The position numbers and the translations under genes were made by a program. Positions 58,399 through 64,000 of a stretch of DNA of 64,000 nucleotides are shown one piece after another (position 1 is the first letter of the stretch; each line of letters starts with the position of its first letter). The stretch is from an uncultured Methanosarcinales archaeon (lineage in GTDB: Archaea; Nanobdellota; Nanobdellia; Woesearchaeales; ARS49), in NCBI GenBank assembly GCA_964637115.1, contig CAZWVL010000005.1, forward strand, positions 1-64,000, in the 5' to 3' direction. The notes under the pieces were generated by a model that was given only the letters and a program-made list of their open reading frames with translations, was not told where the DNA came from and made no database searches.

Positions 58399-58884
58399 AT
58401 GAAGCATGCTATTGCGTTGGCATTGTTGGGATTGATTGCAGCAGTCGCTCTGGTTGGCTTGATTAATCTGGATTCGAAGACTGGTATGCAGTTTATTATC
58501 AGGGGAGATGTTGTGTTGAATGGCGGCATTTACGATCAGGATGGTTATGTTCTCTTTACTAAGCACCAGACGAGGTATCAAAAATTATACAATTCTATTG
58601 TTGCTGTTGCGCCGGATGGCAGGATTGTTGGCACTGGTCCTTTAAGTCCTGGACAGTATCAGCTGACGCTGTATGGTGATTGGAGAAATTATGACACTTT
58701 ATATCTTCAGATTGGATTTTATGATGCTGTAAGGCCTGAAAGAAACACTTTGTATGACTGCGCTCCTTTGAACACAGAGGAACTTCAGGGCAGGGCTGGA
58801 AGGAGGAGCAGTGTGAGAATTCCGATGGACTTGTACTGTAATGCGGAAACTTTGCAGAAAGCGTCGACGTTAAGGTATCGTTAA
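58399..58884 (+). CDS. Secreted/membrane-anchored hypothetical protein (paralog family 3 of 3)
   Basis: N-terminal TM; APDGRIVGTG...YQLTLYGDW. Confidence 0.65.
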   Translation: MKHAIALALLGLIAAVALVGLINLDSKTGMQFIIRGDVVLNGGIYDQDGYVLFTKHQTRYQKLYNSIVAVAPDGRIVGTGPLSPGQYQLTLYGDWRNYDTLYLQIGFYDAVRPERNTLYDCAPLNTEELQGRAGRRSSVRIPMDLYCNAETLQKASTLRYR

Positions 58885-59660
58885 AGGCTTTTTTTGGCTT
58901 TTTCCTGTTTTTGTTTTTCGTGTTCTTCTGTCATGGAATTGTAGAGAGAGCGTATTGTTTCTTGTTGTTCTTGCAGTTTTTTGTTCTTTAATGGCTTGTC
59001 GGAATCAATGAGCTCGATTGCGGTGCTTAATGCTCGGTATGCTTCATCTTTTTTTTCTTTGTCTTGTTTTAGGAAACTGAGCATGCTCAGTGTTTTATAA
59101 TGGTAAACGTGCGCGTCTGGTTCTTCTTTGTTTGATTCAACGTATTTTTTGATGTCTTTAAGGGCTGCCTCGATTCCTTCAATTATGAACGTGTTGTTTT
59201 CAGTTGAGAATGCCATGTATGAATTGTAGCGCGCAAGTCTGGTTTTTGGATCGTCATTTATTTCAATGGATTTTGTGAATGCACCTATTGCCATGGCATG
59301 CCAGCCCTGTTGCTGGCAGAGAATTCCTTTTGCGTAAAGTCCTTCTTTCGGATTTTTCTCGATTGACTTGTCTGCAAGTTCAAATGCTTTGAGCATCTGT
59401 CCAAGTTGCGAATGGCAGTATATTTGTTTTAGAATGCTGTCTGTTGGTTTGCTTTTTTCTGCTTGTTGGAATAAGTGCAGGGCTTCTTTGAGCAGATCAT
59501 ATCTTTCCAGTTCATTTGTTTCCTGTTCAGCTCTTTGTTCAAGTTCAAGGCCGTGGCTGTAGTGGTCTATTTTTTGTTCGAGTTTTGTTTCAGTGTTTTC
59601 TTTCGTCGCACAGCTGCCTAATAGAAGTGCTGCTGCCAGCCCCCACTCACGTAAGCCCAT
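58881..59660 (-). CDS. TPR-like lipoprotein
   Basis: LLLGSC lipobox; repeated helical A..LF..A / A...F.KSI / A...L..AI patterns. Confidence 0.65.
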   Translation of the reverse strand: MGLREWGLAAALLLGSCATKENTETKLEQKIDHYSHGLELEQRAEQETNELERYDLLKEALHLFQQAEKSKPTDSILKQIYCHSQLGQMLKAFELADKSIEKNPKEGLYAKGILCQQQGWHAMAIGAFTKSIEINDDPKTRLARYNSYMAFSTENNTFIIEGIEAALKDIKKYVESNKEEPDAHVYHYKTLSMLSFLKQDKEKKDEAYRALSTAIELIDSDKPLKNKKLQEQQETIRSLYNSMTEEHEKQKQEKAKKSL

Positions 59661-59705: not shown

Positions 59706-60848
59706 TTAGACGAATGCGAGAACTACGTTTGTTATCAATACTGCCAGTATTGCAAAGCTGACTGATTTCCAGATGGTGCTTGCGTGTTTGTGGTGCAGCC
59801 TGCCCTGCAGTGCTGTCAGGAACATTCTGCCGCCGTCAACCGGGCCTAATGGAATCAAATTGAACAATCCTACTCCTAGTGAAAGTAAGTACATCCAGAA
59901 GATTAGGTCTTTGAACCATAGAACAACGTGCGTGGCCCAGGTTGGCGCTTTCAATGGCTGGTCTATGAATACTCCTAGCCAGGCTCTTTTGTTGGTTGGA
60001 TTCTCTCCCAGAGTTATGTCTCTGACAGCATTGGACGTGACTACACTTATAGTGTCTCCTGGTGAAGAATCTTTCAAAGCATTGCTGAAGTCTGCTGTCT
60101 CTCTGATTGCCTGGCCGTTTATCTCGGTTATTTTATCGCCTATTATCATTCCTGCTTGTTGTGCTGGCGGGTTTCCGTCCATTAAGTCTGTTACAACAAC
60201 GCCGTCCTTTGAGTAGAAGGTATTGGTGAAAGGTGTAATGATTGTGAACATCAATAACATTAGCAATAATCCTGTTACGATGTTTGCTACTGGGCCTGCT
60301 GCGTAGACTGCCAGTTGTTTTTTGCGCGATGCTTGCATTAATTTTTTTTCGTCTGGCTCTACAAACGCTCCTGGAATCAATGGAATTAGTGCGCCAAGGA
60401 CAACTAGTCCTGAATTCTTGACCTTTAATCCATAAACGCGTGCCATGACGCCGTGCATTCCTTCGTGTATTATTAGTATGGCAAAAATGCTGATTATCCA
60501 GTAGAAAAAGGGCACGTAGAATACTCCTTTTGCTTTGAATGGCAGAACTACTCCAACAGTCGGCGTTGCAGTGCCGATTAGGATTTGTATGAGAGAGCGT
60601 GCGAGGTCAAATGTTACCAATGCCATTCCGATAAATCCTAAGCCGATTATCCAGGGTGTTGCGATTTCCCAGAAGCGTTTGTATTTTCTGGCAAGCCTGT
60701 CCATTGTGATTATGCCTGCCTGTGTTCTGTACATTGCTGCGTAGAATATGCCCCATCTGTGGAATGAAAGCTTGTGCCTGTTAACATACACGATTAGCGC
60801 AAGAACAATGACAAGGGAAATTGTTGCTGCTGTGTCCACAGAAACCAT
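59706..60848 (-). CDS. Site-2 protease (peptidase M50) with PDZ domain
   Basis: HEGMHG (HExxH), GAFVEPD, AGP, PDZ segment (PAQQAGMIIGDKI), NLIPLGPVDGG. Confidence 0.93.
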   Translation of the reverse strand: MVSVDTAATISLVIVLALIVYVNRHKLSFHRWGIFYAAMYRTQAGIITMDRLARKYKRFWEIATPWIIGLGFIGMALVTFDLARSLIQILIGTATPTVGVVLPFKAKGVFYVPFFYWIISIFAILIIHEGMHGVMARVYGLKVKNSGLVVLGALIPLIPGAFVEPDEKKLMQASRKKQLAVYAAGPVANIVTGLLLMLLMFTIITPFTNTFYSKDGVVVTDLMDGNPPAQQAGMIIGDKITEINGQAIRETADFSNALKDSSPGDTISVVTSNAVRDITLGENPTNKRAWLGVFIDQPLKAPTWATHVVLWFKDLIFWMYLLSLGVGLFNLIPLGPVDGGRMFLTALQGRLHHKHASTIWKSVSFAILAVLITNVVLAFV

Positions 60849-60919
60849 GGTTTTTGCATTGTCAATGGCTATATAATAAATGTTTGTTTTGGTTAGCCTG
60901 TTGACTTAGCTGAATAAGC

Positions 60920-61534
60920 TTATTTCAGGTTGTTCTTCTGAATGCAGTATTCTATAAAAGTCAGCATTGGAAGCACAATCACGTTATTTTGATATTTTAT
61001 TACTGCTACAAAATTCTCTCTTGCTGCCACGCTTATGCCGAATTGTATGCCGCCGTGCGGGATGTGCATGTGAACTGGGCTCGAGTCTCTTATTGCCTGC
61101 AGATATTCATCTGCAGTTCGGATATGTGTATGTGTTAGCTTTTCAACTTCTATGATTTCTGGCTGCCATATACCGGCGTGTGCTGTTCTGTAGAGTATCC
61201 GTCTTAATACGCTTTCGGCTTCTGCTTTCTGCAATGGGGTTCCCCCTGTGAAAATGCACATATCATCTTTACCTTGTTTTATTCCTTCCATTCGTGTTCC
61301 AAGCGCTTTTTTTGCAGGGTAGAACTCTTCAATCACTTTGATGTATCCGTCAGTGTATATCCCGTCTTTTATTTCGATACCTTTGCCTATAATTTCGTCT
61401 AATCCTCTTGGGTCTGGTGCAAATTTTACCTCTGGTTGCTTGGGTTTTTCAATTTCTTTTTCCGGGACATCTTTCCCTCTGATGTTGTAATCAATTGGGT
61501 GTTCTGGGTCCGCAAAAGGGTTTTTTGGTGTCAT
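60920..61534 (-). CDS. NPF-DPEHPIDY-leader protein D (unknown 204-aa protein)
   Basis: Starts MTPKNPFADPEHPIDYNIRGKDV; ATGA-coupled to the upstream gene. Confidence 0.8.
   Translation of the reverse strand: MTPKNPFADPEHPIDYNIRGKDVPEKEIEKPKQPEVKFAPDPRGLDEIIGKGIEIKDGIYTDGYIKVIEEFYPAKKALGTRMEGIKQGKDDMCIFTGGTPLQKAEAESVLRRILYRTAHAGIWQPEIIEVEKLTHTHIRTADEYLQAIRDSSPVHMHIPHGGIQFGISVAARENFVAVIKYQNNVIVLPMLTFIEYCIQKNNLK
61466..61534 (-). repeat. Leader repeat copy 4 (69 nt)
   Basis: atgacaccaaaaaacccttttgcggacccagaacacccaattgattacaacatcagagggaaagatgtc. Confidence 0.9.
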
Positions 61535-61839
61535 CTTAATTTATTATTCAGTGAGATGTTTTTATACAATTCAGTGATTTCAAGATTGCTGGTTTTTGTA
61601 ATGTTAAATTTTTCTTTTGTATCGATTATTATTTTGGATAAACAACTTTCAAAATAATCCAAGTGTTTAAAATATTTCATTTTTTCCAAATCAAGTTTTA
61701 CTTTTCCAATTAGACCTTCAAGGAAGGGTTTACTTTCTGGTTTGTTCTGTGGCTTTTCAACTTCGTTAGGAACGTCTTTCCCACAAATTCCATAATCAAT
61801 CGGATGTTCTGGGTCCGCAAATGGGTTTTTCGGAGTCAT
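61531..61839 (-). CDS. NPF-DPEHPIDY-leader protein C (102 aa, AT-rich body)
   Basis: True start MTPKNPF at 61839 (ATGA overlap); the first 19 aa of the listed ORF are the alternative frame of gene B. Confidence 0.7.
   Translation of the reverse strand: MTPKNPFADPEHPIDYGICGKDVPNEVEKPQNKPESKPFLEGLIGKVKLDLEKMKYFKHLDYFESCLSKIIIDTKEKFNITKTSNLEITELYKNISLNNKLR
61771..61839 (-). repeat. Leader repeat copy 3 (69 nt)
   Basis: atgactccgaaaaacccatttgcggacccagaacatccgattgattatggaatttgtgggaaagacgtt. Confidence 0.9.
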
Positions 61840-62591
61840 TTTTTTGTTCGTACCCCACGCGACGCCCTGCTGTCGTAGTAGCCGTAGACGTTGCACATGC
61901 CGTCGAAGTCGGCACGGCCAACAGGCCGCGCAGCACCATCAGGAGGCAAACTCATGCGCGCTTTGAAGTTGCCTTCACGCACCTCTTGTGGCAAATCCTT
62001 GAACTTCCGCCCATAGATGGCTTGAACCAAGTCATCACTGAATTCATCGAGTGGAATCCACGTGTTTGATTTTTTACCTGCAATGTCAAACTCCTGCTTG
62101 TCGACAAATTTGAAAGAGGAATTTTTCACGTACGTATTGCTGTTCCACACCAATCCTTCAGGGTCGAGATATGCGATGAGAATGTTTCCTTTGCGTTCGA
62201 ATGCCATGCTGAACCATTCGCCATAGCTTGATAACATATCGGCATGCATATTTCTGAATGAAGTATCTACGAGCTTTCCCTTTATACCATCCATGATAAG
62301 ACCAAGTGCTTCCTGAGGTCTCGGGTGACGCTCAAAGCCGGGCTCAAGGCCGTCTATGGTCAAGCGAACCAAACTGTTATTGAAATAGAACAACATCTTT
62401 TCTGATGCTCCTTGCTTACGACATGCAAGCGGCTCAAACTCAATACCCTTGTAAGAGGCTGTTACGATTCTGTTTTGCAGTGGAGTTTCAGGTTTTTCTT
62501 TCTCAGCATTTGCAGGTTCCTTCACATCCTTCCCTCTAATATTGTAATCTATCGGATGCTCTGGATCCTCGAATGGGTTTTTCGGAGTCAT
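61836..62591 (-). CDS. NPF-DPEHPIDY-leader protein B; probable CLec-like domain with DGR-type variable region
   Basis: Leader; GEW; C-terminal RPVGR...RASRGVR; 14 of 15 consecutive codons end in C at 61869-61913. Confidence 0.75.
   Translation of the reverse strand: MTPKNPFEDPEHPIDYNIRGKDVKEPANAEKEKPETPLQNRIVTASYKGIEFEPLACRKQGASEKMLFYFNNSLVRLTIDGLEPGFERHPRPQEALGLIMDGIKGKLVDTSFRNMHADMLSSYGEWFSMAFERKGNILIAYLDPEGLVWNSNTYVKNSSFKFVDKQEFDIAGKKSNTWIPLDEFSDDLVQAIYGRKFKDLPQEVREGNFKARMSLPPDGAARPVGRADFDGMCNVYGYYDSRASRGVRTKK
62523..62591 (-). repeat. Leader repeat copy 2 (69 nt)
   Basis: atgactccgaaaaacccattcgaggatccagagcatccgatagattacaatattagagggaaggatgtg. Confidence 0.9.
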
Positions 62592-63382
62592 TTCTTTCCT
62601 CTTGAGATTTTTTGCGCGCGTATGCCGATGGCTGGTCCCAAATAGGTCATATCGGCAGTGGCTTTGATTCTGAACTGGCCAATGCCGGCTTCTCCCATGA
62701 TGACAGCAAGCTCAGTTGTTTCTTGCGGCGTCTTGTCAAGGCGCCAAAGGTACGTGTCGTAACCGCTTATCCAATGATAAACATCATTGATTTCTTCTAG
62801 GTTGTCTGTGCCGAGTATTGCTTTGCAAGCTTTTCTGCCATGCTTGGAGGTTTTCAACCATTCGTCTGGACCTATGATATTCTCGATTAATCTTTCAGTA
62901 GGAAGGTTATGTGCCACGTGATCAGGCGGGCCTATGTGTGCGTAATACGTGACGCTGGAAAGCGTGTACACCACATTCCGGTCAAACGTATCGTGCAGGA
63001 AAGTCCTGACTTTCTCCATCAATCCTTTGTGTTGTGCAACGTCTTTGTTCCGGTAGAGTGCTGTGAACAATGCGTGATACATCGGTGCAGAAACCAGCGC
63101 AAAGACTTTGTCTTTTGCAGCTTTCTTAGAGTAAGCAAGCCAACCGTCGTGATTATACTTCGCGCCTCCCAAAAGAAGCTCTTTGGCAATATCGATAACA
63201 TAAGTGTCGTTCTTGAACGGTACACCGTAAACGCGATATTTCTCAGCGAAGTCCTCAAGGCTGAATACGGAAGATGACGGTGCAGGTTCTCTTTTCTCAA
63301 CCTTTGCCTCCTTCACGTCCTTCCCTCTAATATTGTAATCAATCGGGTGTTCCGGGTCCGCGAAAGGATTGTTTATAGGCAT
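62588..63382 (-). CDS. NPF-DPEHPIDY-leader protein A (264 aa; possible CLec-like C-terminus)
   Basis: MPINNPFADPEHPIDYNIRGKDV; ends LAVIMG...FRIKA...GPAIGIR; overlaps the VWA stop by 10 bp. Confidence 0.8.
   Translation of the reverse strand: MPINNPFADPEHPIDYNIRGKDVKEAKVEKREPAPSSSVFSLEDFAEKYRVYGVPFKNDTYVIDIAKELLLGGAKYNHDGWLAYSKKAAKDKVFALVSAPMYHALFTALYRNKDVAQHKGLMEKVRTFLHDTFDRNVVYTLSSVTYYAHIGPPDHVAHNLPTERLIENIIGPDEWLKTSKHGRKACKAILGTDNLEEINDVYHWISGYDTYLWRLDKTPQETTELAVIMGEAGIGQFRIKATADMTYLGPAIGIRAQKISRGKK
63314..63382 (-). repeat. Leader repeat copy 1 (69 nt)
   Basis: atgcctataaacaatcctttcgcggacccggaacacccgattgattacaatattagagggaaggacgtg. Confidence 0.9.
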
Positions 63383-64000
63383 CTTGCCACCTGTTTGTAC
63401 TTGTCGCTCGCCACTTTTACCATGAGTTTGGCCAAGTCATCATTTTTGCCAACGTAGTAGACTGCCACTCCCCAAGATTCGAGGTCTTCGCTGAACTGGT
63501 TTTTGCCTCCTATTTGTATGTGTGCAGTTGAGCATTGCTGTGCAAGTGTTTTGTAGTCATCTTTGATGCTTTCCCAGTTGCCTATTGCTCCGTCTGATAA
63601 CGTCAGCAAAAATGTTTCTTCTTTCACTCGTTCTTTTAATTTGTTGATGTCGAGTGTTGTTACGCCCCATTGTGGTGTTAACAGAACTTTGTGCGCTTCT
63701 TGTCCGCTTCCTGCAATTGTTTCTGAGCTGAAGTTTACAACTCCTGCATCCACGTATGGTGCTATGTGCTGCTGTTGCAGGTATCTTTCTATGCCGTAGT
63801 ATCCTAAGAGTGCGTAGTGGTATTTGCTTTTGTCTCCCCAGGGAATGAATGCCTTATTTCCGACGTTTTCTGTATTATTAGGAGCCAGTTCCATGCTTCC
63901 GCTGGAGTCTATGACTGCCAGCCTGAAGTTTGGGAATTTCTTGATATTGTGCTTGTATACTTGTTCTGTTTCTATCCAGCCCCTGTTCACCATTAATCCT
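63373..64000 (-). CDS. VWA-domain protein (5'-truncated by the window edge)
   Basis: AVIDSSGSM MIDAS motif (DxSxS), VVNFSSET, LTLSDG, IQIG; frame stays open past 63993 to the window end. Confidence 0.85.
   Translation of the reverse strand, partial: GLMVNRGWIETEQVYKHNIKKFPNFRLAVIDSSGSMELAPNNTENVGNKAFIPWGDKSKYHYALLGYYGIERYLQQQHIAPYVDAGVVNFSSETIAGSGQEAHKVLLTPQWGVTTLDINKLKERVKEETFLLTLSDGAIGNWESIKDDYKTLAQQCSTAHIQIGGKNQFSEDLESWGVAVYYVGKNDDLAKLMVKVASDKYKQVARCL

Follow-up and report, generated by a model that had tools for sequence, protein, structure and literature searches.

A probable fossil DGR variable region in a tagged MoxR/vWA-like operon of a small-genome archaeon

The operon and the predicted fold of gene B

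The window analysed here is a stretch of 64,000 nucleotides, C5:1-64000 of an assembly with 27 contigs, a size of 1.27 Mb and 98% completeness. A strong MCM match in the assembly indicates that the genome is archaeal. Gene B, the subject of this study, belongs to a minus-strand operon that extends past the window end. In the direction of transcription, the operon and the gene directly downstream of it are as follows.

C5:68207-69406, minus strand: AAA_5/MoxR-type ATPase (AAA_5 at 1e-10)
C5:67476-68210, minus strand: L1, tagged paralog of B
C5:66691-67479, minus strand: L2, tagged
C5:65870-66694, minus strand: L3, tagged
C5:65082-65873, minus strand: L4, tagged
C5:63373-65061, minus strand: 562-aa putative vWA-like protein with a DSSGS motif; its C-terminal part (63373..64000) lies in the window, and its N- and C-termini resemble those of the counterpart on relative contig L064
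62588..63382, minus strand: L5, 264 aa, tagged; upstream neighbour of B, its stop overlapping the B start
61836..62591, minus strand: gene B, 251 aa; open reading frame with a 23-aa N-terminal tag, a K/E/P-rich linker, a predicted C-type-lectin-fold (CLec) domain and a terminal variable region (VR)
61531..61839, minus strand: L7, 102 aa, tagged, with an AT-rich body; its start overlaps the B stop as ATGA
60920..61534, minus strand: L8, 204 aa, tagged; last operon gene
59706-60848, minus strand: M50/PDZ protease, directly downstream of the tag operon

The proteins L1-L5, B, L7 and L8 all start with MTPKNPFADPEHPIDYNIRGKDV. Their genes form a series of eight consecutive tagged genes (60920-63382 and on to C5:68210), joined mostly by stop/start overlaps and carrying at least three unrelated bodies. 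A Pfam scan detected no vWA domain in the 562-aa protein; we infer its vWA-like assignment from the DSSGS motif, and its gene is the counterpart of a 572-aa gene that in relatives lies between two targets of a diversity-generating retroelement (DGR). A structural model of L5 built from only three sequences had a pLDDT of 46, too low to place its fold. Beyond the operon, the M50 (site-2) metalloprotease with its PDZ domain is followed by a TPR protein (58881-59660), an order that is the same in the JGI strain considered below.

Within gene B we distinguish the following parts, the VR being delimited by end-to-end alignment with the template repeats (TRs) of relative contigs L065/L066 and L064 and of genome G019, and its 5' flank by nucleotide comparison with the paralog and relatives.

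62523..62591, minus strand: N-terminal 23-aa tag, MTPKNPFEDPEHPIDYNIRGKDV, common to eight operon proteins
61851..61933, minus strand: VR in the DGR sense, 83 nt, CTGCGCGGCCTGTTGGCCGT...GCGTCGCGTGGGGTA
61914..61933, minus strand: constant 5' flank of the VR, encoding A-A-R-P-V-G-R
61869..61913, minus strand: hypervariable core of 15 codons, 14 of them NNC, encoding ADFDGMCNVYGYYDS
61851..61865, minus strand: constant GC-rich 3' end of the VR, GCGTCGCGTGGGGTA, IMH-like and encoding ASRGV, the last beta-strand

The B family comprises about 25 known members and has no Pfam match; neither B nor its neighbours gave more than sub-threshold noise when scanned with Pfam and PADLOC. An AlphaFold model of B built from the family alignment (25 homologs) reached a mean pLDDT of 84.7 and places a CLec-fold domain at about residues 46-251, with the variable region at its end. 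Among 48,161 PDB representative chains, the top fold match was the DGR variable protein AvpA (5IOO; Z 9.2, 172 residues aligned, model residues 46-249 against chain residues 2-210), and the second was TaqVP (5VF4; Z 9.0, 184 aligned). Below these two, at Z 6-8, came over 40 C-type lectins and FGE-type domains. Foldseek again returned AvpA and TaqVP as its top four matches, with weak E-values of 0.03-0.1. A first-pass annotation made from the letters of the window had named a CLec fold as a check on its DGR reading of B, and the model supplies it: the best matches are two DGR variable proteins, then C-type lectins. In the predicted structure the VR sits at the C-terminal end of the CLec-fold domain, the position of the variable region in DGR targets, and the end points of the alignment place the variable tract and SRGVR strand of B opposite the AvpA VR (181-203) and its beta5 strand RFxGV. 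A profile of the 25 family members searched against the PDB gave no AvpA chain at E <= 10 and no relevant match.

The variable tract and the templates of its relatives

On the minus strand, positions 61913-61869 read GCC GAC TTC GAC GGC ATG TGC AAC GTC TAC GGC TAC TAC GAC AGC. The first-pass annotation had singled out this run for having C in the third position of 14 of its 15 codons, in a tract of 53/80 GC (61851-61930) flanked by RPVGR and RASRGVR; its coordinates and codon counts are exact, a recount returned the same GC figure, and both flanks are found around the tract in gene B. Genome-wide, GC is 42.9% and 21.5% of codons end in C. The codon run is real and not due to chance, because the encoded residues lead one to expect only 5.8 C-ending codons in the 15-codon core (P(>=14) = 1.9e-6) and because the run is unique in the genome: among 349,359 15-codon windows from 1,107 long open reading frames of the 1.27 Mb genome, a count of 13 or more C-ending codons is reached in only four overlapping windows, all of them in gene B. 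A GC content of 66% over 80 nt is reached in 35 genome regions, two of which are the B tract and the corresponding paralog tract at C5:~67485.

The paralog L1 lies 5.6 kb upstream of B, just outside the window. The bodies of the two genes share 85-93% nucleotide identity, which collapses abruptly between the conserved flanks CCTGTTGGCCGT and CGTCGCGTGGGGTAC. In the 5' flank, 17 of 18 nucleotides of B are the same as in the paralog, and the flank is near-identical to relatives' VRs and TRs; across genera, VR flanks are conserved at synonymous sites. The variable part of L1, with its VR at C5:~67491-67570, has 10 of 16 codons ending in C.

The closest homologs of B outside this genome (P0004-P0006, 55-64% identity as listed) adjoin a TR and a DGR-type reverse transcriptase (RT). 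In relatives the cassette runs in the order AbrB-like small open reading frame, MoxR (AAA_5/bpMoxR), target T1, 572-aa protein, target T2, TR, RT, with the TR and RT immediately behind the last target in five complete cassettes out of five. A metagenome scan for the TR turned up a further two contigs that bear this cassette, and cassette contigs of relatives also carry archaeal genes such as MCM, TBP, eRF1 and L37ae. DGR RTs are marked by [ILV]GxxxSQ; the RTs of the relatives' cassettes contain LGNWTSQ and YVDD. No accessory Avd gene was seen in these cassettes. TR/VR pairs within them differ by 7-10 mismatches, all or all but one of which fall at TR adenines. Both DGR targets of one complete cassette bear the same cassette-specific tag, of which two types occur among the cassettes (MTKNPFADPKHPIDY... 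and MNPNTFAGFNLDDVF...); a tag shared per cassette would fit a docking role.

Aligned over 83 positions with the TR that is identical in L065 and L066, the VR of B has mismatches on 11 of the 23 adenine sites and on 2 of the 60 others (Fisher p = 4.7e-6), together with one 3-nt deletion; every TR seen is longer by one codon. Of the 11 differences at adenines, nine lie in the core, at AAC/TAC/GAC codons, and the other two make up the difference at the 3' end, where B reads GGGGTA and the TR GGAATA. The same VR-versus-TR difference occurs in every relative pair: B and L1 read CGCGTGGGGTA, and all relatives' TRs read CGCGTGGAATA or CGTGAATAG. By sequence, B thus has a constant, GC-rich, IMH-like 3' end that differs from the IMH* of the TR. 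Away from the adenines, B departs from the TR twice, by TGG -> CGG in the 5' flank and by AGG -> ATG; all other such positions agree, synonymous sites included (GTC, GGC, TAC, AGG GCG TCG CGT). The adenine-biased mismatches to the relatives' TR, the matching synonymous sites and the VR-type 3' end together indicate, from sequence comparison, that the B tract is a DGR variable region by descent. The adenine-specific pattern is seen with a foreign TR, not with a resident one.

The paralog L1 is biased in this way too when compared with the relatives' TR (mismatches at 16 of 22 adenine sites versus 7 of 58 others, p = 3.4e-7). Its VR has more non-adenine changes than that of B, plus a 6-nt deletion, and is therefore an older, decayed VR. 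The corresponding comparison for L2 gave no adenine bias. Together with the predicted fold, these results show that adenine mutagenesis wrote the exposed loop at the C-terminus of B, a CLec-fold protein.

Codon CGG at 61926-61928 encodes R222 of B, at a position where nearly all relatives, paralog L1 included, have Trp (TGG, in a WPVG motif). The replacement could reflect relaxed constraint on B and counts, with the shortened VR, in favour of a frozen tract.

Retroelement content of the genome and rival explanations

In this genome (G000, 98% complete) RVT_1 gave no match, relatives' RTs gave no match in tblastn (best E above 0.2), and blastn at word size 7 found no TR-like repeat in the 1.27 Mb assembly. 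Nor do a TR or RT follow L8, the last operon gene, where the contig is continuous, as it is for 30 kb to either side. The first-pass annotation had noted that TR and RT were absent from the window, which is correct and holds for the whole assembly; the repeat and RT that it proposed to look for genome-wide are missing here, and are present beside the closest homologs. With no RT in the genome, we file B as an orphan or former VR and not as part of a functioning DGR.

An AAC-rich scan of the genome for a hidden TR matched linker repeats rich in Thr and Pro only. AAC/ACC-rich, Thr/Pro/Ser-rich linker-like stretches lie at C3:~100-102.6 kb and C13:~22.0-22.4 kb and are not TRs. A 16-mer scan of genome contigs for the TR 3' end GCKTCGCGTGRAATAG returned more than 120 matches across unrelated bacteria and was discarded as uninformative, because 14 specified bases in 596 Gb are expected to give thousands of chance matches.

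The exact B protein was assembled from three further Logan sequencing runs, with DNA 100% identical over ~2.7 kb, so that these contigs may sample one population. The JGI strain is 99.7% identical over 13.5 kb, with 41 SNPs, none in the VRs of B, L1 and L2. Across the three runs and this strain, consensus sequences, in which minority variants are hidden, gave no sign of ongoing diversification of the VR of B. Identity of the VR in three runs and a second strain argues against ongoing diversification. The first-pass annotation had called B a current or former DGR target and had proposed a look at sequence diversity; at the consensus level the VR is invariant, and together with the fold and the relatives' TR and RT this favours the former over the current state. 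In the JGI strain (L058), 36 of the 41 SNPs fall within ~800 bp (C5:70827-71643), away from the VRs, in a hotspot that covers the 3' end of a 216-aa open reading frame and the 5' part of a 553-aa one (70961-72622, with a signal/lipoprotein-like N-terminus). The Logan assemblies (L067-L069, window 60515-63347) all break at 63347, in the tag repeat of L5, and in the M50 gene; short-read assemblies of the locus are fragmented by tag repeats, not by the VR.

The VR of B is probably a frozen fossil, an orphan DGR variable region inside a MoxR/vWA tagged-sensor operon. On this reading, gene B would encode a cytoplasmic-type CLec-fold binding protein whose C-terminal 83 nt (61851-61933) are a DGR VR. 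In an ancestor or donor, a DGR RT would have copied an AAC-rich TR, placing random bases opposite template adenines, and the resulting cDNA would have been pasted over the B segment to leave a run of NNC codons with a constant flank on either side, GC-rich and IMH-like on the 3' side. The template would have been essentially ...GGCCGT GAC AAC TTC AAC AAC AGG TAC AAC GTC AAC GGC TAC AAC TAC AAC AAC AGG GCG TCG CGT GGAATAG, a sequence still present in relatives. TR and RT would later have been lost from this genome, leaving in B a frozen, recently written copy and in L1 an older copy decayed by ordinary mutation. We infer this order of events, loss as against acquisition without RT. By analogy with what has been proposed for bacterial MoxR-vWA-DGR systems, the variable loop most likely forms the surface by which a sensor, acting together with the MoxR ATPase machine, recognises its ligand, and the MoxR/vWA-like pair may act as the transducer.

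B, and perhaps L1, might instead still be an active target served in trans by a TR and RT located on a plasmid or virus, on a contig left out of the bin, or in a repeat that assembled poorly. We consider this unlikely, although it has more in its favour than the readings that follow. The assembly has no match to an archaeal SSU rRNA (16S) gene despite 98% marker completeness, so the metagenome bin lacks an rRNA operon, some DNA of the organism is missing and the genome is not truly complete. RTs are common in the family, occurring in 11 of 36 other same-family genomes searched, including G019, G022 and G025, all three of which carry NNC-rich homologs. In G019 a B homolog has, 280 nt downstream of it, an AAC-rich TR, translating to AWPVGRGNYNNRFDVNGYNYNNRASRE*, that differs from the adjacent VR at 13 positions, 11 of them TR adenines; no RT was found on the 10 kb of contig beyond this TR, and other contigs hold three RTs accompanied by TR/VR sets of their own, so that RTs acting in trans may exist in the lineage. 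The near-pristine NNC pattern of B, with only 2 non-adenine differences from the relatives' TR, points to a recent last rewriting and leaves room for a still-active element. Against such activity, the 1.27 Mb contain no TR-like sequence, even though so short a repeat assembles easily, and no RT fragment is found either. The site after the last target, filled by TR and RT in all five complete cassettes, is contiguous and empty here; the VR is invariant in five independent assemblies, with Logan breaks at tag repeats and not at the VR; and every TR seen has one codon more than the VR of B.

The operon could also have been gained horizontally as a target-only fragment, its VRs diversified in the donor and the lineage never possessing RT or TR, a history that differs from loss of TR and RT in this genome solely in the place of the loss. 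A homolog, and a distant one (34% identity), occurs in only 1 of 14 other genomes of the genus, the cassette recurs on contigs with adjacent integrase or transposase genes, and the tag array appears rearranged relative to the two-target cassette. No donor was identified, however, and the bodies of B and L1 are 85-93% identical while their VRs are very differently decayed, which suggests rewriting after duplication, when the copies shared a genome with an RT; we hold such a transfer to be improbable. Least credible of all is an origin without any retroelement, through chance, codon bias or a selected Gly/Tyr/Asp/Cys-rich loop combined with RNA or DNA structure at a coupled gene junction. All the encoded residues do have NNY codons, CGGCCTGTTGGCCG could, from its sequence, fold as a small hairpin, and the tract lies 30 nt upstream of an ATGA-coupled start. 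Yet the run departs far from the 5.8 C-ending codons expected and is found nowhere else in the genome, and such an origin predicts neither adenine-specific mismatches to real TRs beside DGR-type RTs nor flanks kept at synonymous sites across genera. The TR/VR comparisons already effectively refute it, and a hairpin as the cause of the GC spike is ruled out by flanks that match TR and VR boundaries.

Relation to known variable proteins and MoxR systems

B is a DGR CLec target of a small-genome archaeon and is structurally nearest to AvpA. Both are single CLec-fold domains of ~200 residues from small-genome archaea (AvpA from Nanoarchaeota), with a short VR (27 residues in AvpA, ~27 in B) just before a last beta-strand encoded by invariant IMH-like DNA (RFxGV in AvpA, SRGVR in B). 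In AvpA the IMH element encodes the invariant beta5 strand with its RFxGV motif, and AvpA-like proteins without a DGR have already been noted in Woesearchaeota (Handa et al. 2016, PMC5006420). The first-pass annotation had cited AvpA as an archaeal example; the likeness of B to it stands as a structural one, AvpA being the best fold match, and does not extend to homology detectable in sequence, with ~10% identity over the aligned residues. Of the AvpA motifs GxxVVVYAH, HPxxxPFxG and RFxGV, only the last has a loose counterpart in B, SRGVR. AvpA continues for 46 residues after its VR, whereas the VR of B ends 5 residues before the stop, and B, unlike AvpA, has an N-terminal tag, a MoxR/vWA-like operon and no TR or RT in its genome. 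With Mtd of Bordetella phage BPP-1, TvpA and TaqVP (5VF4), B shares a C-terminal VR on a CLec scaffold, NNC codons from an AAC-rich TR, adenine-specific mismatches and a GC-rich IMH at the VR 3' end. Its VR is about half the length of those of Mtd and TvpA, it falls by sequence outside the FGE subclass, with no match to FGE-sulfatase in Pfam, and, unlike canonical DGR targets, it is an orphan.

Bacterial vWA-MoxR ternary conflict systems include CLec/FGS sensors diversified by DGRs (Kaur et al. 2020, PMC7159879; Dore et al. 2024, PMC10907252). As in those systems, a MoxR-type AAA+ ATPase (AAA_5/bpMoxR), a vWA-like partner and CLec DGR targets are encoded together here, and in complete relatives the TR and RT are in the same cassette as MoxR and the CLec targets. 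Here the MoxR-type ATPase is present by its AAA_5 match, and by bpMoxR in relatives, and the putative vWA partner shows a DSSGS motif but no vWA domain in Pfam. The proposed logic, in which an ATPase switch is linked to a hypervariable sensor of ligands, is also alike. The bacterial systems are found in cyanobacteria, gammaproteobacteria and other multicellular bacteria, in contrast to the small-genome archaea considered here, and they usually have the CLec fused to the vWA protein, together with a VMAP component; here the targets are separate, small and tagged, and no VMAP was identified. DGRs of the CPR/DPANN clade 5F were described as lacking conflict-system domains (Dore et al. 2024, PMC10907252).

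The less ordinary features of the locus would be an archaeal MoxR/vWA-like cassette with separate tagged targets and an apparent expansion to eight tagged payloads after RT loss. Tentatively, and with more doubt than confidence, we suggest that the archaeal cassette (AbrB-like, MoxR, tagged CLec target, vWA-like, tagged CLec target, TR, RT) might join a DGR to a MoxR/vWA-like machine by docking tags, and that this genome might represent a second state, in which somatic diversification has been dropped for a germline array of eight tagged payloads, with frozen VRs and unrelated bodies, feeding the same machine. If true, the bacterial vWA-MoxR-DGR conflict systems would have a modular counterpart in archaea, one not reported for DPANN DGRs in Dore et al. 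2024 (PMC10907252).

The orphan VR of B reveals no new mechanism. It does indicate that a DGR VR can be recognised from raw sequence, as an NNC run between conserved GC-rich flanks, even without its retroelement; standard DGR finders require an RT and a TR/VR pair and so would miss an orphan VR. The previously unannotated B family gains a predicted fold, a likely ligand-binding role and a history of diversification, and it ties archaeal DGRs to MoxR/vWA-type machinery so far discussed mainly for multicellular bacteria. Complete cassettes, the orphan TR of G019 and the orphan VRs of B and L1 at two stages offer a natural series for the decay of DGR targets after RT loss. At the G019 locus (L054, G019:C26, 9340-12775), the B-type domain occurs twice in tandem, fused to a protein kinase C-lobe in an open reading frame of 721 aa that is cut by the contig end; it is followed by the orphan TR and then by a HEPN/nucleotidyltransferase pair.
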